NCBI RefSeq assembly: GCF_011630105.1
Contig: NW_022686322.1
Location: forward strand, 3,767,837-3,798,982
Source of the DNA: Anneissia japonica
Lineage: Eukaryota
DNA: 31,146 nucleotides
Direction of reading: 5' to 3'
Shown here: one piece after another, positions 2,669-31,146 of the stretch
How positions within the stretch are numbered: the stretch's first letter is position 1
Layout of the letters: each line of letters starts with the position of its first letter
The notes under the pieces: generated by a model
Databases searched by the model: none
What the model saw: only the letters and a program-made list of their open reading frames with translations
What the model was told of the DNA's origin: nothing
Position numbers and translations under genes: made by a program

Positions 2669-3360
2669 ATGTTTTTAGCCATTATAAATTCTCATTCCTT
2701 CTTATGCAGTTTACACAATCAAACTAATATGAATGCAAAGGTGGTCAGTATATAAGAGAGCAATATATTTTATTTGTGCCATCAAACAATTATATAGTAA
2801 ATATAATATATAAGCTATAACAATATTAATAACAACAATGACAATATTAATAACTTACGAGTAGTCATGCTCTTCTATCCATTTTTTTCCATTTTATTTA
2901 TCAAATATGATATTCAAAAAATATTAATGATAATATTAATAGTTACAATTATAATATTTTCAGATTCAATTAGCATCAATCTGTCTGCATATATAGCATA
3001 TATTCAACATAGCTTTATCAATGCTCTTAAATTCATTTTTTTAAATTTTCAAATATATTTTAAACATATTAATTGTAATAAATCAGTCGTGGGTTTGATT
3101 CCTATCTGAAACAACCGTGATTTTTTATCAAGTATTTGAATTGTACTGAGCATTTAGTACTATATAACACGTCATGTGGGCAAACATCATTTCGTGAAAT
3201 TTTATTGGAGGAAATAATAAAATTCTAGTGTAGTACTTTAATAAACATCCAATAATGGTTTCAAGCATTAGCCACATATCGTGTATGCAAAAATTCATAA
3301 CCAAGGTTTTGGAAAATCAAATTTGCTTGTTTACAAACTTTTTTACAACGATTTTTAATA

Positions 3361-3427
3361 ATAAAAATTATGATAATAATAGTAATAATAATAATAATAA
3401 TAATAAACAATAATAATAACAATAATG

Positions 3428-3488
<61 letters not shown>

Positions 3489-3510
3489 TAATAATTGTTA
3501 TTATTATAAA
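3361..3510. repeat. (TAA)n microsatellite, about 150 bp
   Basis: Read directly from the sequence. Confidence 0.9.
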
Positions 3511-6279: not shown

Positions 6280-6664
6280 AAGGCAGTTCATGCAAATGAA
6301 AATAATTGTTAGGATACATAGTCAAAAATGTGTAAACAAATTGCCTAGTTAAAGTTGTCCAGGTTCAGGGTTGTACTGTAGCTGTAGAAAACTAGGGATT
6401 GGTGGTATACATTTTGAGGGTGGGTGGGTGATAACATAAACTCTAAGAGAGTGTTTTAACGATATGTGCAAGAGGGTTAATAAAGGTGGGTGGAGGGCTA
6501 TGAAATTAGCTGTAGACTGGGTGGAAAACTTCAAAGTTGGGTGGCCCCGCCCAACTCCTCCTACCATAATTACATCCCTGAAGGCAGTACATGAAAATGA
6601 AAATAATTGTTAGGATACAAAGTCAAAAAAATGTATAAACAAATTGCCCAGTTCAAGTTGTTCA
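6280..6664 (+). repeat. Tandem duplication, unit about 301 bp, 1.3 copies, ending about 110 bp upstream of the MVP ATG; the unit contains a G-rich tract and a CCCCGCCC GC box (6546-6553)
   Basis: 6280-6361 (AAGGCAGTTCATGCAAATGAAAATAATTGTTAGGATACATAGTCAAAAATGTGTAAACAAATTGCC…) recurs at 6581-6664 with about 8 differences. Confidence 0.7.
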
Positions 6665-6775: not shown

Positions 6776-6924
6776 ATGGAAAAAGGCAAACGTACAACCG
6801 CTGGAAGTGATGACTCCATCTACCGCATTCCCCCTTACTATTACGTTCATGTACTAGACCAAAACAGCAATGTGACTAGGGTGGAGATCGGACCCAGGAC
6901 TTACATAAGACAGGATCACGAAAG
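6776..6924 (+). CDS. MVP: Major vault protein, coding exon 1 ([49 protein letters not shown] + split Arg codon)
   Basis: ATG at 6776; translation collinear with the vertebrate MVP N-terminus (…[35 protein letters not shown]); donor AAAG|GTTAGT at 6925; phase 2. The exon is preceded by a pyrimidine tract + CACAG, suggesting an upstream non-coding exon. Confidence 0.85.
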
Positions 6925-7300
6925 GTTAGTACCTGTAATTCTTTAATAATTAATCAATAAGAAACAATTTCTTAACAAACATTTTGTACATTTCCTAATA
7001 CTGGATTTTTAATAGAATCTGAAAACTCTCAAAGTGTTTAATTGTTCATATGCTTCTATTAAAGTGCTGTACTTATACTGTACATAACTGTATAATTCAG
7101 CTTTTGCTTATTTACAGTCTTTATTGAAGGTCTATGAAAAAGCATGGTATGTGAGTGATTGGCAAGAAAAGCATTCTCTCTATCTAACCTTTAATTAGCA
7201 AAGCATTTAACTTAATTTATAAAGCAAGTGATTTAATTGTTTAATTTGACGTTGGAGAATAATCCAGAACTCACAGTGTCATTGGGCTAAATTGCATACA

Positions 7301-7405
7301 TACAATAATTATATAATTATAATAAAAATTATAATTATAATAATAATTATAATAATTATAATTATAATAATAATTATAATTATATAATTATAATAATTAT
7401 ATAAT
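7301..7405. repeat. (ATAATT)n-like microsatellite in MVP intron 1
   Basis: Read directly from the sequence. Confidence 0.85.
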
Positions 7406-7444
7406 TGCATACATGATGCATGACCGTAAAGAGGCACTTACTGT

Positions 7445-7600
7445 ATAGTAGCTTCATTTAAGTCCTTATCCGAGAAGACTGGGTTCTGCCAACTGAACCC
7501 TGGGCTAGGACTGGCTCGAACCAGTGATGATGTTAAGGCTGTAGTTAGCAGCATTCTTGCGTTACTGCTCAACCACTCAACTTGGTCACTCAACACAAAC
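7445..7600 (+). repeat. SINE-like dispersed repeat copy (5'-truncated) in MVP intron 1
   Basis: ATTTAAGTCCTTATCCGAGAAGACTGGGTTCTGCCAAC…GTTAAGGCTGTAGTTAGCAGC…CAACTTGGTCACTCAAC matches the reverse complement of 23935-24060. Confidence 0.5.
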
Positions 7601-7704
7601 ACTGTATCTTACAACAATTATTTCTTATATAAAATAATTATTTTTTGAAAGATTAAATTGAAAGAAAAATCATTACAAATATTTTGTTGGATTTTGAAAC
7701 ACAG

Positions 7705-7900
7705 GGTGATATTTGGGCCACAGAAGATGATTATGGTGCCACCAAGGAATTATTGCATCATTGAGAATCCCTCTCAGAAGGACAAAGACGGTGCTGTCGT
7801 ACTGGACAAGCATGGACAGGTCAAACTCAACCACGCTGACCAGGAAATCCGTCTAGCTCAAGATCCATTTCCTCTGTTCCCTGGAGAGGTCCTGAAACAG
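7705..7900 (+). CDS. MVP: MVP coding exon 2 ([23 protein letters not shown]…[17 protein letters not shown])
   Basis: Acceptor ACAG|G at 7703-7704 completes the split Arg codon; matches human MVP …VLFAPMRMVTVPPRHYC…[19 protein letters not shown]; donor CAG|GTACAT at 7901. Confidence 0.85.
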
Positions 7901-8017
7901 GTACATAGTCCTTGAGAGGAATTGTGATCATGATTTTAATTAATTCCTTGTGGGAAAATAGATTGCAAATTTTGAAGTACTTTATTATGACAACGTTGTT
8001 ATATTTTGTTCCAACAG

Positions 8018-8368
8018 GCAGTTAGTCCTCTGAAAGTTGTGCCAGCCAATTGCGCTCTTCGCCTGAGGGCTGTCTTGGACTATGAAGACCCCAGCGGAGA
8101 GAAGAGAGTTGCTGGCGATGAATGGCTCTTTGAAGGGCCTGGTACATATATCCCACGCAAGGAGGTAGTTGTAGACGAGACTGTCAGGGCAACTATCATC
8201 AAGCCCAACCAGGCTATTAAGCTACGTGCTCGCAAGGAGACCGAAGACCGTGAGGGTAATGCGAGGGTCACGGGGGAGGAATGGCTTGTTAAGAAAGTTG
8301 GTGCGTACTTGCCAGGCGCATACGAGGAGGTCGTTGATGTTGTGAATGCTTATGTGCTTACTGAGAAG
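8018..8368 (+). CDS. MVP: MVP coding exon 3 ([50 protein letters not shown]…[32 protein letters not shown])
   Basis: Acceptor CAACAG|GCA at 8016-8017; 351 nt, phase 0; strong identity to human MVP repeat domains ([22 protein letters not shown]…[16 protein letters not shown]); donor AAG|GTTTGT at 8369. Confidence 0.88.
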
Positions 8369-9416
8369 GTTTGTGATAATTTATATTATAGTGATTGGTA
8401 ACCATGGTAATGGTATACAACATGGAAAAGTATCTTATTTCCATGATTTAAAAGAAATAATTATGTTGAGGATTAGAAATAGAACTTTAAACTGATTGAG
8501 GAGAATGTACCTGTTACATTAATATTTTGCATGGGGTATGTAGAACATTAACATTTATGATATAAATTTGTGATAGTATCTAAATTTGATTAAAACAAAT
8601 TGCTGTGTAGGCTAAATTACATAGAAATGTAGAAATATTAAAATATTATTGCTAAATTTCACAATTGTCAATACCACATATAGGTAAAGAACTTAGGCAA
8701 TTCATCAAAAAACTGTAAATATAAATATAATAAATTTTGCACAACAAAAATGTTAGTTTTTATTTTCGCAATTGCAGTTTTAATTTTGTTTTCCTCACCA
8801 AAAAACGTATGTGAATGTGACACTAACTGTTGAGAGGAAGTGTGGTTGCATAAAGACATCCAAGTGAACCTTTATTCATCCTGTATTCGGGTCTGTATCA
8901 CTGCAGTGTCAGAGGAAATTATCATTCTCAGGGTCACAATATTTATGGCCACATCCTGAACTGAAATTGAATTATGTGACAGATAGAAATTTTTTTAATT
9001 TTTTGCAAGTGTGAATGTGTGCTTTTTATATTACCATTATAGATCAAACTGTACATTAAAATTGATTAAATTGTTATGAGTGTGAATGGATGACAATTTA
9101 TAAGTTAATAGCAGTTAAAGTGTATAAAAGTACATTGTTAAACACTTCATGAAATCATCTAGTTACACTAGACTTTTTTATACCTTGTTTCGCGAACTTA
9201 GATCGTCAGAGGAGGGTGGAAAAAAGATAAATATTTAATTTATTTTCTTATTTAGCAAATAGTTTTGCGAAAAAACATCAAGACTGAGGAGAAAATAAAA
9301 CTTTGTTGGTGAATTTAAACAGTGTCATTAATCAGTAAAATTAATCAAATCTCTAATTTGATTAATTATTATTCAAAATTTGTGTTATCAATTGTTTGTT
9401 CTTCATTTTAAAACAG

Positions 9417-9542
9417 AAAGCACTTCACCTGCGTGCCAACCGTACATTTACTGATGCCAAAGGTGTGACGAGAAAGAATGGTGAAGAATGGTTGGTGAAG
9501 ATGGAAGACAACGAGGCACACATTCCTGATGTCTACGAAGAG
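9417..9542 (+). CDS. MVP: MVP coding exon 4 ([42 protein letters not shown])
   Basis: Acceptor AAACAG|AAA at 9415-9416; 126 nt; matches human [42 protein letters not shown]; donor GAG|GTGGGT at 9543. Confidence 0.85.
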
Positions 9543-10021
9543 GTGGGTTACACATCAATCAAAAACGTCCTTTTGGAAAGCAGCAATGTGGCTTTAGGCT
9601 GTCAATTGTTAAACCTCTTGTTTGTGCCCTTGAGTATGTCACTTTACCTGCATTACTTGTCTCCACACAGGAGGTAAATTTGTGCCTGGTATGATAGGAA
9701 AGTAATAATGCGTACATAATTAGAGCATTACTGGAACGATTCCTTACAAAGAGGAGACTTTTTTTCACATCCTGTGTGGTTATGTCAGATCAGGTCACGT
9801 CACGTCACTCTTATAGTTACAGACCATGGGGACGCTTCGATGATAACGAAATGACAATGGTGTTTGCTTATTAAATTTAAATCAATTTGTTTCGTAAGAG
9901 TACAATTTTTTAAAAAGAAAGTGAAAATACAATATCAATAAAGCCCATAGAGCACAGACATTTGAATTAATATACATACTTGAACAATTACTATGTTTTA
10001 GAAAGTTAACTATCATATACA

Positions 10022-10440
10022 ACATTTTTGATAGTAATTATTACAAATATTAATGAATAATAATATTTATTTATTAAAATTTATTACAGTAACTATTAGA
10101 GATATTAATGAATATTAACATTTATTTATATTTATATTAGTAATAATTAGAGATAATATTCAATATTAATACTTATTTATATTTATAATAGTAATTATTA
10201 GAGATAATGAATATTAATATTTATTTATTTTTACTTATAATAGTAATATTTATTTATATTTATAAAGTAATTAGAGATATTAATTAATATTTATATTTTT
10301 AATAGTAATTATTAGAGATATTGAAGAATATTAATATTTATATATTTATATTTATAATTTATTAGAGATATAAATGAATATTAATATTTATTTATTTGTA
10401 TTTATAATACTAATTATTAGAGATTAATGAATATTAATAT
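10022..10440. repeat. AT-rich minisatellite (about 55-60 bp unit, about 7 copies: …ATTAGAGATATTAATGAATATTAATATTTATTTATATTTATAATAGTAATT…) in MVP intron 4
   Basis: Repeated TTAGAGATA…GAATATTAATATTTATTTAT blocks read directly from the sequence. Confidence 0.7.
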
Positions 10441-10453
10441 TACTCCTTTACAG

Positions 10454-10564
10454 GTTGTTGGCTTGAAGGATATCATTACCCTAAATAATCGACAATACTG
10501 TGTGATCTTGGACCCAGTTGGTGACAATGGTAAGCCACAGCTCGGACAAAAGAAACTTGTCAAG
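10454..10564 (+). CDS. MVP: MVP coding exon 5 ([37 protein letters not shown])
   Basis: Acceptor TTTACAG|GTT at 10452-10453; 111 nt; matches human …[24 protein letters not shown]; donor CAAG|GTATGT at 10565. Confidence 0.85.
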
Positions 10565-10750
10565 GTATGTAATCGACTAGTTACCTTAAATTTTAAACCT
10601 AAATACAAAATACTAGTAATTATTAATCATTATATATTATATTTATTTTAGTTTCTGATTAACAATTATTTGTAATAAAAAATAATTTTGGGAGTTCAGT
10701 ATTACATTATATAAAGAGTTCAGATAATATTCTTTTATTTTTTGTTTCAG

Positions 10751-10876
10751 GGAGAAAAATCTTTTTTCATGATGCCTGGTGAAAAGCTTGAGAAAGGAAT
10801 TCAAAACGTGTTTGTTCTTGGAGAAGATGAGGGCATTATCTTGCGGGCAAAGGAAGCATTTAAGGACAACCTTGCG
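10751..10876 (+). CDS. MVP: MVP coding exon 6 (GEKSFFMMPGEKLEKGIQNVFVLGEDEGIILRAKEAFKDNLA)
   Basis: Acceptor TTTCAG|GGA at 10749-10750; 126 nt; matches human [33 protein letters not shown]…; donor GCG|GTAAGT at 10877. Confidence 0.85.
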
Positions 10877-11434
10877 GTAAGTTGCCAAATCGCCAAAATT
10901 CTCCCTAAAATTTTTTTTTTACTATTGTCCAAAAATAATCCATTCTAATTCACTGACAAAATAATTTGATAAGGACTTTAGGTTTTGCTTTTGCAGGGAA
11001 GAAGATCTAATACAGTTTGCACTGTCATTTGAGACTATCTTTGGGACCTGAAAATTTGGGGTTTTCTCAGAGTTTTCGATCTTTACATTGAGGGTTAGCT
11101 TTAGTTAATAGCTTGAAGATTGTTAGAGGGATCTCGAAGGAGGGTACTTATCTAGACAGATACTATAGAAAATCTTCCAAAAATGTAATTAAAACTTTGT
11201 TTAACTCATTTAAATAGATAATCAACTTTTAATGAACACATATAAAAGTCTAATTATTTTTTTGCTGATTTATATACCTTTTGGTACAAAACTTCTTAAA
11301 TTAATCAGTTTAAAAGCCCTGGTCCATCCAAAAATATAAAAATTTTATTATGTATTTTCTTGTTTTAATTCATTAATTGAAGGCTAATTAAACTTTTAGT
11401 AGTCTTGGTACTGAGATTTCAGTTGTATTTATAG

Positions 11435-11587
11435 AAGGATTGTGAACGCAAGCCGGGTGATAAATGGATGATGCGTGGACCAATGGAATATGTGCCACCC
11501 GTGGAAGTGGAGGTACTGACCAAAAGGAAGGCAATCCCATTGGATGAGAACGAAGGTATCTATGTGAGGGACACAAAGACAGGAAAG
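11435..11587 (+). CDS. MVP: MVP coding exon 7 ([51 protein letters not shown])
   Basis: Acceptor TTTATAG|AAG at 11433-11434; 153 nt; matches human …[44 protein letters not shown]; donor AAAG|GTAAGT at 11588. Confidence 0.85.
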
Positions 11588-11932
11588 GTAAGTTGAATAT
11601 ATATCAGCCAGTGGTGGGAGGGAGTTATAGTTGTAATAGGGGATCTAACTGATGGAATGTTATTGCATAAAGTTAGTGTACGGTTTAGAGTTCTAAACTA
11701 ACAGAGCAGATTTGGGTTCTGCACCTGACACTGTAAACAAAGAGTGGAATTCAAACCTATGACAATATAACAATTTGAGAGCGTCGACCCAGTGTTTCCA
11801 AAATTACCTGACATTCAAGTATTTACTGGGCCCAGCAGATCTTTTCTTTTGAAACTGTTTGAAATTTATACCAATTTTAATATAGGTTAACCAATGTCAT
11901 TTTTTTTTTATCTTACTTATTGTCTTCTTAAG

Positions 11933-12165
11933 GTACGTGCTATTACCGGAATTACTTACATGCTAAACCAGGATGAGGAACTTTGGTGTAAAGAACTGTC
12001 ACCAGCTGTTGAAAATCTACTGATGAGTATGAAAGACCCTATTGCTGATCGTGGTTCTCGGGGCGCACCAGTGGTCGCAGAGAGAGAGAAGACAAAGGTG
12101 GTCACCCTTCGTGTTCCCCATAATGCAGCTGTACAGATATATGATTACAAGGAGAAGAAAGCCAG
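11933..12165 (+). CDS. MVP: MVP coding exon 8 ([30 protein letters not shown]…[18 protein letters not shown] + split Arg)
   Basis: Acceptor TTAAG|GTA at 11931-11932; matches human [30 protein letters not shown]…[19 protein letters not shown]; donor CCAG|GTATGT at 12166; phase 2. Confidence 0.85.
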
Positions 12166-12800
12166 GTATGTTTTTTGTCAGGCTTTTTGTTTATGTATTA
12201 TATGTCATACCCGAGATCGAGATAAAAAAAATTCTGAGGCTGAATGTGTATCCTAGGCTTGTAAGTCTGCATTAAAGGAGTGGGGTCTGGGGGTCCACAA
12301 TTGAAATTTCAATTCAAAAACTGCAGTAAAATTGATCACATCTTTATCTATGATTATCTTCTGCTGGATGGTTCACCCTCTTTAAATATGCTCAAATAAA
12401 TAAGTAAATAAATTAGCAGCTGAATGTAACTATCCTTATGTAAACTCAGCCAATTTTTTCATCTATAGATTTTTTTTCTTTTTTGCTATAATAAGAATTT
12501 AACCCATTTTTAATTTTAGTATTTATACTATAGCCTAAAATACCAATAGTTAATTCTTATTGTATAAACACATGAAAAAAATTAAACTCATGAATACAGT
12601 ATTAATGATTCTTTCTGAACTAAAGTTAATTACACTATTTTATTTCTGCATTTTTTCTTGTTCAAATAGTTTCTTCAAAGATGCTAGGAATAACTGATAT
12701 ATATATTATTATTATTATGGAACTCTGGAATCCTTTTACCTCCATACCTACATTGTCTTTCAAATTGTTTAGTGTTGTAACAGTGTTATTCTTTATATAG

Positions 12801-12998
12801 AGTTGTGTTTGGACCAGAGCTGGTGATGCTTGGTCCTGATGAGCAGTTTACTCAACTGAGTCTGTCGGGAGGAAAGCCAAAGAGACCAAACGTCATCAAA
12901 TCCTTGTGTCTGTTGCTGGGACCTGATTTTTGCACAGACATCATCGTTATAGAGACAGCAGATCATGCTAGGCTACAGCTCCAGCTGTCTTATAACTG
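12801..12998 (+). CDS. MVP: MVP coding exon 9 ([66 protein letters not shown] + split Trp)
   Basis: Acceptor TATATAG|A at 12799-12800 completes Arg; matches human [29 protein letters not shown]…[32 protein letters not shown]; donor TG|GTAGGT at 12999; phase 2. Confidence 0.85.
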
Positions 12999-13825
12999 GT
13001 AGGTTTTACATAAATATTCATTGCCATCATCCTCTCAAAGTTAATTCTTTAGTGAATATGTGATCGTAATGATACATATTACCACAGCCTCTATGACTTT
13101 CATATTATAACACCAGGCACTGGATCAAACATGTCCAGGGGAGTATTTCTACTGGAAATTCTAGTTTAATTCATTGTCAGACATTTGTATGTATATGATG
13201 TGATATAAAATATAATATGTTAGGCTTATATAGTGCCTAATGCCAACAAGGGCTCTAAGCGCTTAATTTATACCCCCGGTCATTGGATCAAGCACATAAT
13301 ATGGAACACATACTCAGCTCCCTGGGGAGAATTCCATAATGTTGCAGCTGTAATCAGCGCATTTTGTGTTTGAACCTACCAAGTAGCCACTTGTACCCCT
13401 GGGTGGAGAGAGACAGCTGTAGGTAAACTGCCTTTTCTAAGGACACAAGCAAAATTCCCGAAGGATTGATCCTTGACCTCTAGGTTGAGAAACAACTCCT
13501 GTTGGATAGAGGCAACAAATTTTAATAATTTCACTTGCCGAAGGACACAGCAAACCAGGGGACAACTTCAAATCTCAGCTGCTGGGCCAAACACTCTTAA
13601 ATTATATAATTAAATTTCACATACAAAATATAGTAACTGATAATAATTATAAATATAGTACAGTATTTTCATTTACTGTTATTTTATTATTTATGCAATT
13701 TGTCGATATGATTGTCTAATTGTGTATGAATTTCGAACACTGAACCCGATTCCCTCAGCTAAAATTGCCTACATGGTATATGTATACAATTTGTAATGTT
13801 AATAGCAATGTATTTCATTTATCAG

Positions 13826-13970
13826 GCATTTTGAAGTCAATGATAAGAATGATGACAATGATGCAGCTAAATTGTTCAGCGTGCCAGACTTTGTCGGAGA
13901 CGCTTGCAAGGCTATTGCCTCTCGAATCAGAGGTGCTGTGGCCGGTGTCCAGTTTGATGATTTTCACAAG
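13826..13970 (+). CDS. MVP: MVP coding exon 10 ([49 protein letters not shown])
   Basis: Acceptor ATCAG|G at 13824-13825 completes Trp; matches human [48 protein letters not shown]; donor CAAG|GTAAAT at 13971. Confidence 0.88.
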
Positions 13971-14756
13971 GTAAATAAAAGAAATACGCGCCCGATAGGT
14001 GCACGAGTATACTGCAGAAACTAGGTCAAAATTACTCTATCGGATAAGGTGCTAATCATCAGCAGTTGGTCATCTGTCAAAACATGGGACTAATTACCAA
14101 CTTCTGTATAAAACGACATTCACACTGTACTTGGCATGCCTGTAAAATGAAATGAACCTTAACACGTTCCAGTTTACAGTAAAATTCCATCAACCATAAC
14201 ACATTCCATTTTACAAAAAAATTCCACTACCACATCATAGAGTATATCTGTGCAAGCGTAGTATACTCAACAACTAATAATTGTAAGGTCACCATCAACA
14301 AGTTTCTTGAGTTTTTAATGTGATTAATTTTTATCCAGTAAGTTGTAAAATTATAGAATAATTGTTGAAATCTGAAATGTGTTACAGTTCAGGAATATAG
14401 ATTTTGTAATATGAATTTCAATCATTATTATACCATCTTGTTTCAAGTCACCATGACTATGTCAGAGGTCAAGGTATATGTCTAATTATTTTCTACATTT
14501 TATGGCTGTTGGTCTGTACAGTGTTTAATATACCCAATGCATTTTTCTTATAAATTTAAAATTGTGCAGAAAATTGCATGGAAAATAGGTGTGCAAAGCA
14601 ACATGTAATAATTGTTTGTGTGTATCAGCCCTTATTTTAAAAATTTATGTCAAAGCCTAATTATTTTTCAGCAGGGTCACACTTTATGCTTATATTGTGT
14701 CCTGATCTTCAGCATCAATGTGGAAACCCTATATTTATTATAATTGCTTTCTTCAG

Positions 14757-14968
14757 AATTCTGCCAAAATCATCCGTGCATCAGTATTTGGGTTTGACGA
14801 CAAGCAGAAGGTCCGTGATCGATTCCTGTTCCCTCAGAACAACCTGGTTATAACCAGTATTGATATCCAGTCAGTGGAACCAGTTGACCAGCGTACCAGA
14901 GACGCTTTGCAGAAGTCTGTACAACTGGCGATTGAGATCACAACCAACTCCCAGGAAGCCGCAGCCAG
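14757..14968 (+). CDS. MVP: MVP coding exon 11 ([70 protein letters not shown] + split Arg)
   Basis: Acceptor CTTCAG|AAT at 14755-14756; matches human NSARIIRTAVFGF…[48 protein letters not shown]; donor CCAG|GTCAGA at 14969; phase 2. This is the exon that is duplicated at 19390-19601. Confidence 0.88.
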
Positions 14969-15471
14969 GTCAGAGTTCAGACATGATTGTTCACTTATAT
15001 TCCATTCATATTCCAGTTTTGCTTGGTATTTCATACAGACAACATGTACACTTGCTATGCAGGGTAGAACGATGCTCTATTAACTCAGCCTCTTTATGAG
15101 GCTCAAGCTGTGGAGTTGTTTTGAGGTATGAGAAATAATTTGGGAGTCTGACAATGTTTGAAAACCAGATGCTAAGATTGGAAGGCAACCACCTGTAGCA
15201 CTGTTTACTGTTGTGGAGTGATCAACAGACTTCCTCTTGTTCAGCTAGATAATTTAACAACCATTATTCATACATGGCCTTATTCTAATCAATATATAAG
15301 CTGAAGATGTCTTTACCCTCCCAACAATCAGTTTAGAATGTATTTGCCATTTTACATAATATGTGTGTGTGAAAGTGCATGCATAATGCATTGTATATTG
15401 GCTGTCTGTCAGAGTACTACTACATTATTGAATTTTTAATTGATCTATTTGATATTGTTCGGTACATTTAG

Positions 15472-15715
15472 ACACGAAGCTGAAAGACTTGAGCAGGAGG
15501 CAAAGGGTCGTCTAGAGCGTCAAAAGATTTTGGACGAAGCTGAAGCTGAGAAAGCACGCAAGGAACTGCTGGAGCTACAGGCCAATAGTGCAGCTGTTGA
15601 GAGCACTGGACAGGCAAAGGCTGAGGCTCAGTCCCGTGCTGAGGCTGCTAGAATTGAAGGCGAGGCAGCTGTTGAGCAGGCCAAGCTGAAGGCAGAGGCT
15701 GCTAAAATTGAATCT
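15472..15715 (+). CDS. MVP: MVP coding exon 12 ([82 protein letters not shown])
   Basis: Acceptor CATTTAG|A at 15470-15471 completes Arg; matches human [80 protein letters not shown]; donor TCT|GTAAGT at 15716. Confidence 0.85.
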
Positions 15716-16000
15716 GTAAGTTAACAAAATTCTTCTAACTGGCATTTTGTCCAAGTAAGTAAAGCAGCTTAGAGCCTGCTGCACACGAGTAAACAGACTT
15801 GCAACTGAAGTTATTGTCTTGTGTGTGGTGAAATTAGGAACCTTTTGAACCTGCATGACTGGAAATAATTTCAGTAACGCTCAAAAATTGTGTTCCTTGT
15901 CAATGGCGTATTTCAAGGAGGTGCCTGGGCACCCCTACCTTTTTGTTCAAATGTGAAAAAAATAATAGAAAATGAATGGCAGTAAATGGCAAACTAAGTT

Positions 16001-16265
16001 AAAGGCCTGTTTATACTAGCAACGATAATTATAAAATGCTAAAAAGCAATTGTTCCTATAGAAAATAAAAGAAATGAAAGAGGTTTTCACAATAGCACGC
16101 TTTGATAACGATTTATCATGTGTACGATAAAAAAATATTTTCGTATACACGATAAATTGTTATCGAATCGTGCTAGTGTGAAAACTTCTTTTATTTTCTC
16201 TATGAACAATTGCTTTATAGCATTTTATCGTTATCGTTACCGTTGTAAGTATAAACAGGCCTTTA
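16001..16265. repeat. Near-perfect 265-bp palindrome (two arms of about 130 bp, no spacer) in MVP intron 12; hairpin/foldback element
   Basis: Left arm AAAGGCCTGTTTATACTAGCAACGATAATTATAAAATGCTAAAAAGCAATTGTTCC…; the right arm is its reverse complement with a few mismatches, ending …TAAACAGGCCTTTA at 16265. Confidence 0.75.
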
Positions 16266-16442
16266 CTTTATACATTAACAGGCATTAATTTGTCATTAAT
16301 ATGAACAATTCTTGTTTTTTTATTTATATATTGCTTCTACTAATCTCATAGAATTGCATTGGCTGACAACTGTTGGGTGGAATGAGTGGCTGGCTTTCGA
16401 TATGACATTATTGTGCCATAATATGAGGAAATCACAGATAAC

Positions 16443-16848
16443 ATATGTGGCAAAGACAAGCCAAATCAGTCACTCGTCGCAAAAATCGATTTTGAGTTAT
16501 TAATACAGTGTTAGAGAGTAAAATAATATATATAAAATGGTAAAAAAATCATAGTTACATGCGTTTAACCACACAGCTGTTTAAAGAACAATATATGAGA
16601 AATTAGCCATCAAAGGTTATGATTTCAGGCATTTCTCATGCAGAAACTATCTTTAAATCCTTAAAAAGTATTGTTTTAACATTGAAAATTGGGAAAATAA
16701 CAGCATGAATGATGTGTAGATATATAAAGGTTAGTTTAGTGCAATAAAATAGATTTTTAAAAATTTGACATTCCAGCATGTTTTTTGCCATTTTCTCTCA
16801 AACACGATTTGCGACGAGTGACTGGTTTGGCTTGTCTTTGCCACATAT
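16443..16848. repeat. Inverted-repeat pair (about 45 bp arms, about 325 bp spacer) in MVP intron 12; MITE-like
   Basis: 16443-16483 ATATGTGGCAAAGACAAGCCAAATCAGTCACTCGTCGCAAA equals the reverse complement of 16808-16848 (TTTGCGACGAGTGACTGGTTTGGCTTGTCTTTGCCACATAT) with 1 mismatch. Confidence 0.6.
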
Positions 16849-16925
16849 TAATTTTAGTGTGGACACAGGTTTACGTGTTACACAGTCATCAAATAACATA
16901 ACTTCATTTACATTGTATCTTACAG

Positions 16926-17237
16926 CAATCAGAACTCGAACAACTGACAGTTGCGAGAGAGGCAGAGAATAAGTACATCAGCCAGCAGAACGAGATGGAA
17001 ATCAGCAAAACTAAAGAAATGAGCGACATCGAGACGGCTAAATTCGATAGCATGGTGTCGTCCATCGGTGCAGATACCATCAGGGCCATTGCAACATCTG
17101 GACCAGAGATGCAGGTGAAGTTGCTGCAATCTCTTGGCCTCAAGTCTACCTTGATTACAGATGGTACCAGCCCCATCAACCTCTTCAATACTGCCAACGG
17201 ACTTGTTGGTGCTCTTGCGCCACCATCAAACAATTAG
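16926..17237 (+). CDS. MVP: MVP terminal coding exon 13 ([17 protein letters not shown]…[52 protein letters not shown])
   Basis: Acceptor CTTACAG|CAA at 16924-16925; matches human …[48 protein letters not shown]; stop TAG at 17235-17237. The CDS total is 2556 nt (851 aa + stop). Confidence 0.88.
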
Positions 17238-17268
17238 GTTCAAAGCTTTTTTAACAGCAATTGATGGC

Positions 17269-17274
17269 AATAAA
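17269..17274 (+). other. MVP: Candidate MVP polyadenylation signal AATAAA, 32 nt past the stop
   Basis: Hexamer AATAAA read directly; further AATAAA copies lie at about 17366 and 17767, so the 3'UTR end is ambiguous. Confidence 0.45.
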
Positions 17275-18718
17275 ATATATTTCTAGATGTATTGGAAAGG
17301 AACATTTGAATTATGTTTTACCAATGGGTGTTTTATAAATTCATTAGATTTTTATTGGAAAGGAAATAAAACACTTATTAAAAAATCGGCTAACTGTGCT
17401 AAATTGCTGTATTAAAAGATAAATTTATTAGTTTTGTTAGTTTGGTGTTTGTAAAAATGAACTTTATATTTGTAGATAAAATTATCAAGGATGATATCAA
17501 AAACAGTTGTAGATTGGTTAATTTTGTTTATGATGATTGCTTTTTAGGTCTCCATATTTGTAGGATGTTTTTGGTCAATATGAAAATGGATTATATAACA
17601 TTTATATATAAAAGGAAGATAAATTTGTTTTATCAAATGATTGAGAAAATTTTGATTTTGTAATACTGTAATTAAATTCCTATTTTAATACAGTCATGAA
17701 CATTTAAATGTGAAATTGTGCCATATATTATAACAGAAATAATGTTTATTAAAATTGCTGTTAAAGAATAAATACAATATATTTTATATATCTATATAAT
17801 ATAAAATGCAGGCAGATGAATTATGCATTGACAGGCCTGTGTATTGATATTACAGAAGTTTGAATTAATGAGTTTTTAGTAATAAAGTATCAATTTAGAA
17901 AAAAAAATGGAAATATGTTTTCCACATGATCCAAAGTAAGTGTTCTATACAGATATTTATTATCATTGTTCTAATAATACTATATGAATTCTGTACATAT
18001 ATTGTTTGTATTATTTTGCATTACAAATTTCTTGAGTTTAGACCAATTGTGAGGGCCCAAATTTAAAAAATATACTCAAGAGAAGTATTAATACTTGTGT
18101 TTTGTTGTATGTGTTTTGTAGTCTAAACCCTCTCATTCGTAGTAAGTGCTTCAGGATAGTTTAATTGATGAGTATAACCTCTTTCAAACACAGTTAGGTC
18201 CCTCTGGTCCTATTACAACAAGGCATGACCACACCCATGAGATTGAGACAGGTGCGGATCCAGTAGGGGAACCCCTCCCACTTTTCCACTAAATTTCAAG
18301 GCATATCAATGTTATGTATTGAAAATACACACTACTCGTTTATCTATTCTGAGAATGTTGTGGCCCCCATCCCCCGTTTAAAAACATTTTGGATCTGCCC
18401 CTGTGAGAGGTATATATATCATGGTCTTAGCAATGAAATCGTATATCCTTTTTTCAACAAAAAAACATTACACATTTTAAAAAGTCAATCATTCAAAATA
18501 CTGTATTATATCATGTCTGAAGTGCAAGTCTTAAATTTTAAAAAGAAATATTTACAAGTCTTGCTATTACATATTTACATTAATTAAAATGTCCATAGTA
18601 GAAAACACACCTGTGTCTGCTGCGATATAAACATGTTTTGTAAAAATAAACTTTCTGATAAAATTTACAAAATGCATGAGGAGAAGCAGCAAGTTTTACT
18701 TTTCACATCAAAGTCAGT

Positions 18719-18955
18719 TTAGCTATCTGTAATAGCAACATCCTTTGTCAGCGAGATTCCAATTTCTTTAAAGTCTTCTGCAACACTCCTGATCATAGCA
18801 GCTGCTTGATGTTTAGAAACTGCAGGTACTGATTCTGTTCCTGGAATCCCCTTTCGTTTGGCATCCAACTCCAATAAAGCCTCCATTTTCATTGCAATTT
18901 GTTTGCACTGTTCTTGTCTTTGTTTCATTCTAGCCAGCTTTGCATCTTTCTGTGC
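18719..18955 (-). CDS. 3'-terminal coding exon of an unidentified gene (AQKDAKLARMKQRQEQCKQIAMKMEALLELDAKRKGIPGTESVPAVSKHQAAAMIRSVAEDFKEIGISLTKDVAITDS*)
   Basis: A - strand ORF preceded by a good acceptor (pyrimidine tract + TTTTAG|GCA at 18957-18956) and ending in TAA at 18721-18719. The coiled-coil-like sequence is not recognised as any family. Upstream exons would lie beyond the chimeric junction at 19116. Confidence 0.4.
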   Translation of the reverse strand, partial: AQKDAKLARMKQRQEQCKQIAMKMEALLELDAKRKGIPGTESVPAVSKHQAAAMIRSVAEDFKEIGISLTKDVAITDS

Positions 18956-19115
18956 CTAAAATAAAAAGGAATGCAAGATAGGAAATTACAGTACACGTTT
19001 GCATAAACGATCTACAGTATTTGAAGAAGTTTTTATCTAAAATTTATTTAGTAATACAGTAATAACATTTTGCTAGGCCTATATCTGTGTGTGTGTGTAT
19101 ATATATATATATATC

Positions 19116-19153
19116 CTGTCTCTTATACACATCTAGATGTGTATAAGAGACAG
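19116..19153. other. Nextera/Tn5 mosaic-end junction adapter (ME-rev + ME-fwd), a library artifact embedded in the assembly
   Basis: Exact 19-mer CTGTCTCTTATACACATCT (19116-19134) is followed immediately by its reverse complement AGATGTGTATAAGAGACAG (19135-19153). This is the circularisation junction of Nextera mate-pair libraries, and it is not a natural metazoan sequence. Confidence 0.92.
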
Positions 19154-19775
19154 GTGTTTAATATACCCAATGCATTTTTCTTATAAATTTAAAATTGTGC
19201 AGAAAATTGCATGGAAAATAGGTGTGCAAAGCAACATGTAATAATTGTTTGTGTGTATCAGCCCTTATTTTAAAAATTTATGTCAAAGCCTAATTATTTT
19301 TCAGCAGGGTCACACTTTATGCTTATATTGTGTCCTGATCTTCAGCATCAATGTGGAAACCCTATATTTATTATAATTGCTTTCTTCAGAATTCTGCCAA
19401 AATCATCCGTGCATCAGTATTTGGGTTTGACGACAAGCAGAAGGTCCGTGATCGATTCCTGTTCCCTCAGAACAACCTGGTTATAACCAGTATTGATATC
19501 CAGTCAGTGGAACCAGTTGACCAGCGTACGAGAGACGCCTTGCAGAAGTCTGTACAACTGGCGATTGAGATCACAACCAACTCCCAGGAAGCCGCAGCCA
19601 GGTCAGAGTTCAGACATGATTGTTCACTTATATTCCATTCATATTCCAGTTTTGCTTGGTATTTCATACAGACAACATGTACACTTGCTATGCAGGGTGG
19701 AACGATGCTCTATTAACTCAGCCTCTTTATGAGGCTCAAGCTGTGGAGTTGTTTTGAGGTATGAGAAATAATTTG
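19154..19775 (+). repeat. 622-bp duplicate of MVP intron10-exon11-intron11 (copy of 14521-15142); chimeric assembly segment or haplotig fragment
   Basis: Collinear identity at a constant offset of +4633 bp. The identical ORF-track entries (14647-14853 = 19280-19486; 14718-15083 vs 19351-19716) confirm this. There are 3 substitutions (14897 C>G, 14906 T>C, 15066 A>G). The left edge is the Tn5 junction adapter, and the right edge switches abruptly to RMND1 sequence. Confidence 0.88.
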
Positions 19776-19817
19776 TTGCAATTAAAAAAAAATTATTTTC
19801 AGGTATTGGCACATGGG

Positions 19818-20327
19818 ATGCAATTTAAGATGTCGTCTTCATTGAATAATCTGTCAATAGTCTTACCAAGATGGATGACAAAAGTCTGGCAGAAAACATC
19901 AATTGGGATAACGGCCATTAGTCAATCAATGCATTGTTACAGATTGAACAATCATCACAAACAAAACCTACTACAAAGTAGTATTAAAATGTATTCATCA
20001 AGTTATTCAAGGAGGTTCTCATATGAAAGGCATCAAATCATCCCCCATAAAATACCCTGGAAAATACCAGTACTAAATTTTGCAAATATAAAGTTATCAT
20101 TAATCAAGAATCAGTATTCACTCAGCTGTGTGCGAAAGCAAAACTTTTCTTCCAAGTCAACGTCGGGCAATACAACAAATGCCAACACAGATCCACTCAA
20201 CAGACCGATAGTTTATGCCATGAAACTTAAAAAAGGCACAAGTAATAAAGCAAATCGGAAAGGACAGAAAATGAAGATAGCAAAACATAGAACAAAGAAA
20301 CCAGCCAGATTAGCAAAAGACACAGAG
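19818..20327 (+). CDS. RMND1: RMND1 (DUF155) homolog, first coding exon, start uncertain (MQFKMSSSLNNLSIVLPRWMTKVWQKTS…RLAKDTE); basic N-terminus free of acidic residues, consistent with a mitochondrial presequence
   Basis: The ORF is open from 19761, but 19761-19775 lies inside the chimeric block. The first ATG beyond it is at 19818 (next at 19830). Donor GAG|GTGAGT at 20328; phase 0. The 5' boundary of this gene is compromised by the misjoin. Confidence 0.55.
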
Positions 20328-23929: not shown

Positions 23930-24290
23930 CATTTGTTAGAGTCGAGTGACTGAGTTGTAAGGCAGGGGCGCTGCTAACTACAGCCTTAACATTGCTCCTT
24001 GCCCAGTAATTGGTTGGTAGAACCAAATCTTCTCGAATAAGGACTTAAATATGGACTTAAATATGGGAGGTCAAGTGTATACATCTGGCTTGTGTGCACT
24101 TTAAAGAACCCATTGCATCTTTTTGAAGAGTTTGGTCCTATGGTTCATTTCAGTCCCTGTTGTTCAGTCCTTGTGGAATGATGTGAACTAAACACCGTTC
24201 TGTGGCTGCTACAGTAGTCATGGACCATCCCCATACACAATTCAGCACATGACGCTGCGAGTTATGGGTTTTTTCCTACATTTACCTTTA
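23930..24290 (-). repeat. SINE-like dispersed repeat copy (longer, inverse orientation) in RMND1 intron 6
   Basis: The reverse complement of 23941-24060 aligns with 7455-7600 (ATTTAAGTCC…GTTAAGGCTGTAGTTAGCAGC…ACTCAGTCACTCGAC). The extent towards 24290 is inferred. Confidence 0.45.
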
Positions 24291-26968: not shown

Positions 26969-27325
26969 CTAGAATTTTTTAATGAAGATGCTCTTGCGAA
27001 TTCCCATACAGTTAGCTTCATCAATGTTCAATGTATTTGACTTGACATCAATGTCTTCCTCCAAGCGAAGTTGGTTGCGAATTAGGCCTTTAAGCTCCAT
27101 CTCTGCTTGTGCTAAGGTTTCTTGAAGCCGTTTAACATTTGTATCAATCTCGGCAACTTCATTGATAAGACGGTATTGGACGGGATCACGACAGAGTTCA
27201 ACATTTGGACGCGTAGTTCGGGCATCAAGTCTGGTTTCGGATAACTTCATTGGTCCAGTTTTGTCCCCAATTGCTTTCTGTAGTTTCTCGATATTTCCTT
27301 CCATGTCGCGTATTTGTCCAAGAAT
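26969..27325 (-). CDS. TEKT1: Tektin-1-like terminal coding exon 5 ([118 protein letters not shown])
   Basis: Acceptor CTCTTCAG|ATT; contains the tektin signature nonapeptide RPNVELCRD; matches human …[82 protein letters not shown]; stop TAG at 26971-26969. The total CDS is about 1209 nt (402 aa). Confidence 0.85.
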   Translation of the reverse strand: [118 protein letters not shown]

Positions 27326-27956
27326 CTGAAGAGGTCAAAGACATAAATTTACATAAAAAACACCAACACAATCATCTTTCTAATCTAATTTGTTGTCTCT
27401 CATTAACCAAAAAATTACTTTTTTTGTCAAATTCTTGTCTCTAATAATTATTTGTTGAGCAAAATGATCTTGAATTTCTTTTCATATTTTACAATTTTGA
27501 TAAATGGAAATAAAATGTACAAAATACATAATTAAATAGTACCATTTCTAAATTCTTTGCACAGAACCATAAATTGGCTGTTAATATGATCCTGCAGTAA
27601 GGTATAAATTAGCAAAGATCTGAATTGTTTTCTCAATCGATAATTTATGAAATCTGTTTAACTAAGCAATTTAATGTAGTTGGGTTGGATTTTTTTTTAA
27701 TTTAAAATGTGTTGCTACAGTCAAGGAGACGCTAACGTTAAGGAGTGTACAGTGTAATATAAGCCAGCTAGAACCATTCTGATAATGTTTGGAAATTCAA
27801 TAATGATAAGTTAACTGGCATTCCAAACAACAAGTCAGGTCTTATTATACTATACAATACTTAATTCTTTGTATTTGATTACAAAGTGGCAGTAAAGATC
27901 ACATGACCGATTGGGCCTACTGAAGTTGTAAATTATAAATGCCGAATGACACATAC

Positions 27957-28179
27957 CCTGGCCAGGTGTGATTCTAACTTGCTCTTAGCCAATGCTGTCT
28001 CCTCAATCCTCTTAGTGAATGCGAGGTTTGTATCATTAACTTGTTGCTGCATATCATCGGCTGTCGTCGCCAGGATACTGTCAATTACGCTACGCAGATC
28101 TACTGCACATTTTCTTTGTTTTTCAGCCTTGTTGATATTCTCGTTTGAGAAATCCTGCCAATTTTCGGGAGTTACAGAG
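27957..28179 (-). CDS. TEKT1: Tektin-1-like coding exon 4 (N SVTPENWQDFSNENINKAEKQRKCAVDLRSVIDSILATTADDMQQQVNDTNLAFTKRIEETALAKSKLESHLAR)
   Basis: Acceptor TTTTACAG|C; matches human [75 protein letters not shown]; donor CCAGG|GTATGT. Confidence 0.8.
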
Positions 28180-28750
28180 CTGTAAAACAAAAGAAGATAT
28201 TGTGATTGATAGAAGTGATAGAAGTGATTGGGGGTTTATACATATCATGTACATACAAAATAATAGAATAAATAATAAAATTCATTTGATACCTCCATGA
28301 TTCATAATGAGAATTGCCATCGCACAAACCAGCATACTTTTGCTAAATACTACAACGAGTAATTAGCATAAGAAAGTGGCAGTATTGTATACTTAGTATC
28401 TGTAGAGATAAAGCCATTATGCTTTTACCCATAACAATGGCAATAGTAAATAAATTTCAGTAAATGACCTATCATTTTAAAGCTAATAATGTGAAGAATA
28501 ATATTAAACAGTCCATTTTCTTGTTTTGGTCACTAATGCTGGTTTGGCCACGGCAAGCTCCTTATATATCTCTGTTTTCTTTCAGTTGAGTAGTCGTCTT
28601 TTATGGGGACCTTCAACACATTAAAAAGTAAGGGATTGTCTCCTAGGCTACTGCCCAATTACTACCAAAAGGAACCATCTGAAAATGAATCTTTAGGCTT
28701 TCATGGGCTATCCTTGTTGCTCACACTAATTAAACCCAATTCAAACTTAC

Positions 28751-29023
28751 TTGGCCACAATCTTTGCTGATCCAGGGACTGATCGGAGACCGGAATGATC
28801 ATCCCGGAGTTCACGACAGTCGCCATCAATGCTCAGCGCCTGGAATTTGTCCTTCAGATCTTTCTCAAGGTAGTATTTCTTTGATCGCATAATCCTAATC
28901 TGCTCCGTTGTTTGCTCCAGTGTACGCTGCAACAGCGACATCACACCTTGAATAACTTCACGCTCTTTAATAAGGTTCTTCTGGACATCGTCATGCACTA
29001 AATCGATTGACACACGGCCTTCT
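28751..29023 (-). CDS. TEKT1: Tektin-1-like coding exon 3 (R [90 protein letters not shown] + split Asn)
   Basis: Acceptor CTAACAG|A; matches human [67 protein letters not shown]…; donor CCAA|GTAAGT. Confidence 0.8.
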
Positions 29024-29452
29024 CTGTTAGAATAAAAATAGATGAAAAATCAATATAATAGTGATTTATTCTCACCACAACATGAGTTACATTGTTGAAA
29101 ATCACTTGAGTTAATAATGGTACATTTTCATAGATTACAGTACAGTATAAGCTTTTATTTGGAATTTTAATGAAGAGATATGAACTTTTCATTTTTAGAT
29201 ACTGTATATGGAATCCTGGTTTGGGGGAACCACAGCCTCTGTTTAAATAACAGTAAATAAATAATTGGAATAAAAGCTCTAAATTTGAATGAAGAACACT
29301 TTTATAGTTAAAAAACCAAAAATATAATTACTGAAATATTCAAAATAATTGGGACCACAATTTGATAAAAAAAAAATTTCACTGTGACTGATCTCTACGA
29401 TGATACCAATGATACAAATAATTTTGTTGTGGAAACCTCGCAAATGCTTTAC

Positions 29453-29618
29453 CTATTTGCCAGACACTGATTTACAATTGCAAGTGGTTGTTTGCATGCC
29501 TCAAAAGCGCTTTCTAATCTGGTCTTGTAAGCTAGTAGCATATCAATCTCCTTCTTACTATCATCTAGTTTACGGTCCAATTCGTCTTTCCAAAATGTCA
29601 CATCATCTATTCTTTGAT
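29453..29618 (-). CDS. TEKT1: Tektin-1-like coding exon 2 (DQRIDDVTFWKDELDRKLDDSKKEIDMLLAYKTRLESAFEACKQPLAIVNQCLAN + split Arg)
   Basis: Acceptor (T)nCAG|AT on the - strand, preceded by a poly-T tract; matches human [22 protein letters not shown]…[28 protein letters not shown]; donor AATAG|GTAAAG. Confidence 0.8.
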
Positions 29619-29998
29619 CTGAAAAAAAAAAAAAAAAAAGGATTCAAAATGGAGAATGAAACTACTTCAAAAACTTAAAATAAATGGTCTCTAAGGATTA
29701 AAAAACAAAAGGGGGTGGGTAGTGGAACAAACTCTTCCAACAAAACCCCAGTAAGTATGTGCTAGTGGTTACATAAGTTATCAAAGGCAATACTGTATCA
29801 AAGTTTTATGCTAACAAAAAACAATTGAAATGATTTATCACAATTAGCGAAATAATTATGCTGCAATTAATTTTTTTAATTCTTCGGGCAAATTAGTCCT
29901 ACTTTCTAAACAATAGATACAGTTGCCCTGTTTCACTAGGCACTACTGGACTCACTTCACCAATGCAGACTATAAAAAACATTCAGATGTTTGCTTAC

Positions 29999-30188
29999 CA
30001 AATTTCTTATTTACATCCCTTTGTGTCTTTTTCGTTGTCTTGTCTGTCTCTTCAATCAATCTATCACTCTCTGCAATCAATCTCTCTGCACTTGCCCGTT
30101 GCTTTTCAGCACTATCATACTCAAGGCAATTATTTAGCGTCCACTCAGGATGTGTGAATGTAGTTGGTGCTTGAATAAGCTTTGCCAT
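29999..30188 (-). CDS. TEKT1: Tektin-1-like, coding exon 1 (MAKLIQAPTTFTHPEWTLNNCLEYDSAEKQRASAERLIAESDRLIEETDKTTKKTQRDVNKKF)
   Basis: Start ATG at 30188-30186 (- strand); matches the human TEKT1 N-terminus [24 protein letters not shown]…[30 protein letters not shown]; donor TTTG|GTAAGC (- strand) just below 29999; phase 1. Confidence 0.82.
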
Positions 30189-31146
30189 ATTGATTTGTGA
30201 TATCTGGAAAAGATTTATAGTTTTAATAAATTGATTATACAATACACATAGCCTTATCTAGCTCATTATCACAATGATTCCATAATCTATTTAATGATTG
30301 AAATACATACTACTGTGGCAAATTTAATTATGTCCAATAAGAATGGTAAAATTATAATTAAATACCTATTCACAAAAAACGCAAACCTCACTGTAAACTG
30401 TTTACAACAATTCATTCAACCAATTCAGAGATTTCCCATGTGCGTTGATTTGCTGTTGATTTGATCGTGTAAGTTGTTCAATACTTGCTTTTTAACGAGT
30501 AGAAACTCCTTTGTTTTTACAAAAATTTGTTTGGTGAAGTTAATGTACTTCACAAGACTACAATATAAACATTTTCACGTTTAGTGAAGATTTGATTTTC
30601 GTACATGGTACAGTACATTCATGAATTTAACTTGTCAACAAAAGAGCCTCGCCAAATCAGTGCCGTGGTGAGCTTGGGCACCGCAGCTTGGGGTGGGCCG
30701 AGGCTAATTTCGAGCTGAAAGTTGAACTCATAATAGTCATATTAACAAACATTTAACCAGAATCGTTAAATTTATGTGACCGATAATGCAAGTTTTTTTA
30801 AGTATGACTGCGCATGCGTTATTTATTTCACGTAAATATTTCTTTTTACTGATTAGTTTATGATGGAGTGCATTTCAATACTTGAAGTATGTATTATACT
30901 TTCTGATTAGTTTACTGTGACATAAATAATTAAAAATATAGGCCTAGGCTAGGTATCCACTTCCTATCTAGGCCTAGGCTAGCCTAGGCCTATATAAAAT
31001 AATAAAAACACAAATAAATAATGTTTTCTTAATCTTTATTCTTACTTAGGCCTAGTAGACAGTGGCGGCTCTAGGATAAAATTTATGGGGGTTAAGATGT
31101 CTGACTGGGGTGGGGGGCTAAGTATTTATGGGTGTAAGTGCGCAGC

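Follow-up and report, generated by a model that had tools for sequence, protein, structure and literature searches.

A very probable last exon of a small stathmin-related gene beside a mis-filled gap in the Anneissia japonica assembly

The open frame found on the − strand at 18955-18719 of the window (the whole stretch of 31,146 nucleotides from Anneissia japonica analysed here) is very probably the authentic last exon of a two-exon stathmin-related gene, whose exon 1 was lost to a mis-filled assembly gap. The exon is a new, probably unannotated member of an existing but unnamed and uncharacterised stathmin-related family. This family of ~140-aa proteins appears to be unstudied so far, and searches of the literature on stathmin in echinoderms or sea urchins yielded nothing about it. 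The features concerned, in window coordinates, are:

About 6776-17237, + strand: major vault protein (MVP) gene, with many exons and complete-looking, from translated exons
14521-15142, + strand: original of the duplicated block, from sequence comparison, with 14521 as left end of the circularised fragment
17238-18718, − strand: 3′ UTR of the small gene, together with the intergenic space up to the convergent MVP gene, the MVP stop being at 17235-17237
18719-18955, − strand: terminal coding exon, very probably exon 2 of 2, of the small stathmin-related gene, from translation and homology
18956-19115, − strand: retained 3′ end of intron 1, 160 bp, with the acceptor ...ttttattttag at 18956-18966
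19116-19153, no strand: Nextera mate-pair junction (circularisation) adapter, 38 nt, exact match of both halves
19154-19775, + strand: artefactual copy of an MVP intron and shoulder-domain exon, 622 nt, three mismatches, 99.5% identical
19776-19817, no strand: genuine sequence resumed after an adapter-less breakpoint at 19775/19776, from the divergence of the copies and the RMND1 alignment
From 19818, + strand: RMND1 (Pfam DUF155), from alignment of the A. japonica RefSeq protein
About 26969-30242, − strand: tektin gene, tail-to-tail with RMND1, from translated exons

Coding frame, homologues and gene structure

On the − strand, 18955-18722 translates to AQKDAKLARMKQRQEQCKQIAMKMEALLELDAKRKGIPGTESVPAVSKHQAAAMIRSVAEDFKEIGISLTKDVAITDS, and a TAA stop follows at 18721-18719. 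The 79-codon ORF described in an earlier note on this DNA thus consists of 78 sense codons and the stop, and the clean TTTTAG/GCA acceptor which that note placed in front of it is borne out: directly 5′ of the frame stands cctatcttgcattcctttttattttag/GCA, a good pyrimidine tract followed by AG. Because the AG of the acceptor belongs to an in-frame TAG stop, the open frame starts exactly at the acceptor. From orthology (see below), we infer that the acceptor at 18955/18956 is in use. On the 3′ side, the − strand poly(A)-like hexamers nearest to the small gene, ATTAAA at 18165 and AATAAA at 17961, are candidates for its 3′ end. A tRNA scan of the whole window with ARAGORN found none.

The window is AT-rich eukaryotic DNA and holds 44 open frames of 78 codons or more, versus 14.8 ± 3.8 in dinucleotide shuffles. 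As the shuffle test gives many frames that long, ORF length alone is not beyond chance and was rejected as evidence; the exon is judged real because of its homology.

An exhaustive HMMER search of the 78-aa peptide against 1.84 billion representative proteins recovered 19 representative proteins at E ≤ 1e-3 (range 2e-26 to 5e-4), all of them matched in the C-terminal halves of proteins of ~71-153 aa. The top match was XP_071945441.1 (P0121) from Antedon mediterranea, with E = 2.1e-26 and 71% identity over residues 60-136 of 136; its last 78 residues are 71-72% identical to the window exon, with which it shares length, stop and intron position. Matches came from Antedon, Diadema, Patiria, Ptychodera, Saccoglossus, Lingula, Patella, Owenia, Pecten and Haliotis, and further family members from Glandiceps, Acanthaster and Lamellibrachia, a spread that takes in echinoderms, hemichordates, a brachiopod, molluscs and annelids. 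At full length the family proteins measure 131-153 aa, and they are unnamed or carry the names 'uncharacterized' or 'hypothetical'.

Their C-terminal half shows a family signature, R.E(E/Q)C...LL.(Q/L)DAKR.G.PGTE...(M/V)S...A...I.SV..(D)F, and the near-invariant alignment columns (R, E, C, L, D, A, K, G, G, S, V) are all present in the window peptide, which on this signature is assigned to the family. The earlier note had been unable to attribute the peptide to any family; the HMMER search now places it in the uncharacterised stathmin-related one. Within the window, tblastn with 22 family proteins gave matches only at 18722-18955, and an HMM of the C-terminal half of the family scored E = 1.6e-34 on the exon frame and hit nothing else. 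The window exon and Antedon exon 2 have 78 codons each, no indels and an identical stop position (pN 0.16, pS 0.57, dN/dS 0.17), and nucleotide similarity between Antedon and Anneissia is confined to 18714-18957, that is, to the exon alone, from the acceptor to just past the stop.

Other searches with the peptide were less productive. A Pfam scan of the 78 residues found no family and only a sub-threshold match to DUF2732 (E = 0.037), which we treated as noise. A word-indexed protein search returned no match. This miss is a false negative: the Antedon protein shares exact words of 5-7 residues with the peptide (KQRQEQC, DAKRKG, PGTESVP). Because the exhaustive HMMER search then found the family, the word-indexed result of 'no Anneissia protein' carries little weight, and blanks from such an index are unreliable for short queries. 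By exact look-up, the protein collection contained the peptide in none of three versions (69, 78 and 57 aa), and across the indexed, exhaustive HMMER and exact searches no protein of the collections contained the window peptide. The suspicion that the gene had been lost in annotation is upheld to that extent; that the small gene is unannotated in Anneissia is likely.

Some family entries (P0126, P0128, P0132, P0134, P0136 and P0138; 71-85 aa) consist of the exon-2 half alone. These short entries begin at a Met near the equivalent of 18928; their sources are mostly short contigs from ENA or Logan, and they are probably truncated gene models. As they look truncated, the first exon of the family seems to be missed often, and not only in Anneissia.

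The organization of the gene can be read from its orthologues. The Antedon gene (locus L001) has two exons, on the strand opposite to RMND1: exon 1, MSTTHSNKVQNVSFDVLLDDSCKNDKTRVPKRLLANNGYKLSADQLQIKQQEAEKRRQ, is followed by a gt donor, an intron of ~245 bp and exon 2 (ACKDYK...ITDS). Likewise, the gene comprises two exons in Glandiceps (L002) and Acanthaster (L003), and in all three species it is split at one and the same codon by a phase-0 intron, which directly follows RR(K/Q/E) in the long helix. The window acceptor at 18955/18956, where the acceptor side alone is visible, coincides with the exon 1/2 boundary of these genes, and it is orthologous since Antedon residue 59, the first of exon 2, aligns to 18955. 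The view of the earlier note that this is the 3′-terminal exon of a − strand gene therefore holds, as the exon is orthologous to the last exon of the two-exon gene of Antedon, Glandiceps and Acanthaster.

Gene order agrees between the two crinoids. In Antedon, the small gene (−), RMND1 (+) and a tektin gene (−) follow one another, with ~1 kb between the start codons of the small gene and RMND1, and the gene at the tektin position (locus L001, 16374-19297) matches PF03148. The window shows the same arrangement, the exon pointing away from RMND1 with tektin beyond; the head-to-head RMND1 and tektin neighbours are thus shared, and the place of exon 1 is taken in the window by an artefact. In Glandiceps and Acanthaster the small gene adjoins a G-patch gene, not RMND1, so that adjacency to RMND1 may be crinoid-specific. 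On the other side, MVP is convergent with the small stathmin-like gene in the window. Antedon has a ROCO/COR/Death-domain gene there instead, and this left-hand neighbour is thus not conserved between the two crinoids.

From the orthologues, the upstream part is expected to be a single exon of about 58-72 codons. The best match to exon 1 obtained by tblastn of the 22 family proteins against all six frames of the window had E of about 1, and an N-terminal HMM run over 1,751 stop-to-stop window segments gave a best E of 0.23. The N-terminal exon is thus absent from the six window frames, in line with the claim that the upstream part of the gene is missing at the misjoin; that claim spoke of upstream exons in the plural, and of this the missing exon stands and the 'several' does not. 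From the acceptor to the ATG of RMND1 the window measures 913 bp, made up of 660 bp of adapter and duplicate and 252 bp of genuine sequence, versus 1,430 bp in Antedon. Given this deficit and the lack of a counterpart in the window, the assembly lacks, at this point, exon 1, the remainder of intron 1 and the divergent promoter region. The absence of exon 1 says nothing about the real gene, because its expected place is occupied by the 660 bp of artefact.

The missing exon would encode the start codon, an SF(D/E)V...PKRL motif and a helix segment of the form ...EKQ..AE.RR; for the family as a whole, the motif reads SF(D/E)V...P(K/S)R(L/F). The complete transcript would join ...RR(K/Q) to AQKDAKLARMKQ..., giving a protein of about 136-150 aa from a gene lying tail-to-tail with MVP and head-to-head with RMND1.

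The adapter-bearing junction and alternative readings

Genuine sequence upstream of the exon closes with a (TG)n(TA)n microsatellite at ~19085-19114, probably the end of a contig, and stops at 19115. The adapter comes next, 160 bp upstream of the exon on the − strand: CTGTCTCTTATACACATCT occupies 19116-19134 and its reverse complement AGATGTGTATAAGAGACAG 19135-19153, with no mismatches and 0 occurrences expected in shuffles. In Nextera mate-pair chemistry, a junction read runs from the right end of a fragment through the adapter to its left end. The order in the window, ...19115, adapter, 14521..., is the one that a single circularised 4,595-bp fragment gives, and that size falls within the 2-18 kb range of the libraries. 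An identical 38-mer has been described as a mate-pair ring adapter (PMC7357533), and the A. japonica genome was built from short-insert and six 2-18 kb mate-pair libraries, with Platanus for assembly and scaffolding and GapCloser 1.10 to fill gaps (PMC7351957).

The duplicated block itself diverges sharply from its original after 15142/19775. Up to there the two differ at 14897 (C/G), 14906 (T/C) and 15066 (A/G). Two of these differences lie inside the MVP exon and leave its translation unchanged; the third lies past the donor of that exon, which was placed by eye. All three fit the other haplotype and look like heterozygous SNPs of the sequenced male. The adapter and duplicated block announced in the earlier note are thus confirmed down to the exact 38 nt, the 622-nt copy of 14521-15142 and the mate-pair geometry.

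We propose the following reconstruction. The contig would have ended in the microsatellite at about 19115, and the gap filler would then have extended it with an untrimmed chimeric mate-pair junction read. The fill would have walked 622 bp along MVP sequence before joining the next contig at 19776. Because the gap 19115-19776 was closed with a chimeric mate-pair read, the truncation lies in the assembly and not in the animal. The locus does not differ from the mate-pair adapter and gap-filling misjoins of short-read drafts, of which it is a textbook example. The false second MVP shoulder-domain exon could itself be mis-called as a gene fragment or a duplication.

Three other readings of the locus were weighed. 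A real segmental duplication of the MVP exon might have truncated the gene in the animal, and both the length of the 622-bp block, which exceeds a single short read, and its three differing positions count for such a biological break. This explanation is highly improbable, as the junction carries an exact synthetic 38-nt Nextera adapter, on which ground we exclude it. Indeed, the adapter is flanked by exactly the ends expected of a single circularised 4.6-kb fragment, a second haplotype in a heterozygous individual would account for the three differences, and the pipeline used mate pairs together with GapCloser. The frame could also be a chance one, or a decaying pseudogene fragment, that happens to lie beside an assembly error; in so AT-rich a window, frames of 78 codons or more arise readily, as the shuffles illustrate (14.8 ± 3.8), and neither Pfam nor the word-indexed search found anything for the peptide. 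However, significant homologues of the exon occur across four phyla, the exon is colinear with Antedon exon 2 from acceptor to stop, with 0 indels and a dN/dS of 0.17, and its synteny with RMND1 and tektin is conserved. We consider this reading extremely improbable, to the point of exclusion, owing to the HMMER homologues, the tblastn and HMM matches confined to the exon, the dN/dS and the exon-limited DNA similarity. The homology check suggested in the earlier note accordingly yielded coding homologues under constraint and no sign of a pseudogenic fragment.

Nothing would be missing if the gene were complete in a single exon and started at the ATG at 18928, which is in frame and would give a 69-aa protein (MKQRQEQC...); database members of 71-75 aa begin at the equivalent place (P0128, P0132, P0134, P0136, P0138). 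Yet the nine codons between acceptor and ATG are conserved with Antedon (AQKDAKLAR versus ACKDYKLAQ), the similarity to Antedon begins exactly at the acceptor, and an N-terminal exon is present in each orthologue that was mapped to a chromosome-scale or scaffold locus. Since the short entries come mostly from ENA/Logan short contigs and are probably truncated models, we hold this reading to be very unlikely and retain that of a two-exon gene with its first exon lost to the gap.

Relationship to stathmin

The gene is stathmin-related by orthology and not by the content of the window, because the stathmin profile PF00836 matches only the N-terminal halves of the orthologues. Among ten orthologues scanned, nine were matched there (E up to 0.0031), five of them above the gathering score (25.1-31.3 bits versus 24.7), with alignments covering profile positions ~7-85 of 136. 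With scores of 25-31 bits versus 24.7, in a low-complexity charged helix, the relationship suggested by this profile is borderline. The window peptide had no match to PF00836 at the gathering score or otherwise.

Comparison with structures gave a similar picture. The family profile matched Stathmin-4/RB3 and stathmin chains of the PDB at E = 2e-5 to 2e-4, profile positions 6-76 aligning with chain residues 11-82. Stathmins (STMN1-4, and the RB3-SLD of tubulin T2R complexes) thus resemble the N-terminal halves of the orthologues over stathmin residues ~11-82, where both have an (A/S)FE(L/V) strand, a basic/proline linker and a helix of the form ...EE(I/L)..K...AEERRK..E. We take the aligned region to be the (A/S)FE(L/V) strand of the stathmin N-terminal cap, the linker and the first tubulin-binding helical repeat. 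The match of the family profile to stathmin repeat 2 is weak (10 bits), and is an alternative placement of the same segment that aligns to repeat 1. By hhalign, the family aligned with residues 13-79 of human STMN1 at 93% probability, and the PDB result corroborates the alignment independently. For the exon-2 half alone, hhalign against STMN1 returned a probability of 0.5%, and the idea that this half is a diverged second stathmin repeat was rejected. With its first 17 residues the window exon prolongs the stathmin-like helix; its remainder lies outside the similar region.

An AlphaFold2 model of the Antedon orthologue, computed with the family alignment, had a mean pLDDT of 83, residues 1-42 being low-confidence. 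It predicts two helices, at 43-92 and at 106-135, with a loop between them at 93-105 (DAKRKGLPGTESVPS). The window exon corresponds to Antedon residues 59-136, and would in this model contribute the distal two thirds of the long helix together with the conserved DAKRKGIPGTES loop and the C-terminal helix. A Foldseek search of the model against the PDB found no informative neighbour, only generic helical hairpins at E > 0.4; matches to a phage small terminase, the ING4 dimerisation domain and Mediator Med11/22 were rejected as meaningless at this level.

In stathmin and RB3, a single uninterrupted helix of ~95 residues carries two tandem tubulin-binding repeats; canonical stathmins sequester α/β-tubulin and destabilise microtubules. 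The predicted structure of the Antedon protein departs from this two-repeat architecture, its long helix ending at ~92. In contrast to stathmin, the family has one helical repeat; the conserved Gly/Pro loop and second helix that come after it have no stathmin counterpart. We call the gene stathmin-related, and not stathmin, because it has one repeat rather than two and because the part of it present in the window has no profile match.

Single-repeat proteins of this type offer two points of comparison. The engineered single-repeat R1 (PDB 4f6r chain C, 6gvm) was matched by the family profile at E = 2.2e-5 over positions 26-77, about as well as natural stathmins. As R1 is an artificial construct, the resemblance is architectural only, and the natural family adds its conserved C-terminal loop-helix module. 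R1 binds a single tubulin heterodimer, the stoichiometry that would apply to the family. A candidate parallel is vertebrate STMND1 (stathmin domain-containing protein 1), which has a single stathmin-like segment after an S(F/Y)DV...P.RL-type motif and a C-terminus that is not known to be related.

As to function, family members would bind α/β-tubulin in the manner of stathmin through their one repeat, and would thus hold one heterodimer, not two. The window exon would supply the end of the helix, then the family-specific conserved loop and second helix, a module that could fold back on the long helix or form a separate interaction or regulatory surface. That the family is a single-repeat, stathmin-type tubulin-binding protein with a family-specific C-terminal module is a tentative proposal, to which we give less than even chances. 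The fuller picture of a natural single-repeat stathmin holding one tubulin heterodimer, with the C-terminal loop-helix as a built-in cap, an autoinhibitory module or a partner-binding module, is possible and rather doubtful.

Neighbouring genes and consequences

The gap also affects RMND1. The A. japonica RMND1 protein (P0001) is ~98-100% identical to the window exons in blocks that do not span introns. It begins MQFKMSSS..., with its start codon at 19818, and since only 42 genuine bp (19776-19817) remain upstream, the 5′ UTR and promoter of RMND1 are also lost in the mis-filled gap. The true start of the protein may differ from the annotated one (MQFKMSSS...); over its first ~100 residues A. 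japonica RMND1 does not align with Antedon RMND1. The genes that we take to be MVP and tektin were recognised from their translated exons.

Several repeats were observed in the window. A dispersed element of ~110-125 bp, probably a SINE- or MITE-like repeat, occurs at 7456-7582 in an early MVP intron and, in opposite orientation, at 23940-24050 in an RMND1 intron, the two being 81-82% complementary. MVP introns also contain two MITE-like elements, one at 16443-16848 with 41-nt terminal inverted repeats (98% complementary, 324 bp apart) and one at 16021-16238 with 53-nt terminal inverted repeats (91% complementary, 112 bp apart), as well as an AT-rich minisatellite at 10014-10433 with a period of ~51 nt and at least seven copies (...TATTAGAGATATTAATGAATATTAAT...). 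A 55-nt direct repeat (6280-6334 and 6581-6635, 91% identical, 301 bp apart) lies just 5′ of the first MVP coding exon, and long (AAT)n tracts occupy 3356-3500 and 2584-2670.

The A. japonica draft, an Illumina assembly, thus holds an unremoved mate-pair adapter and a mis-filled gap at the locus of the small gene. Through this gap the small gene loses its exon 1 as well as the promoter/5′ UTR region that it shares with RMND1, and MVP gains a false copy of one exon. An adapter screen of the entire assembly would probably reveal more such sites, and claims about gene loss or gene counts in crinoids that rest on the A. japonica assembly should allow for misjoins.

If the proposed function is true, the family would represent a microtubule regulator that echinoderms, hemichordates and lophotrochozoans have retained, with no member found here in vertebrates, arthropods or nematodes. 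It could then provide a simple natural model for the complex of one tubulin heterodimer with a stathmin-like protein.
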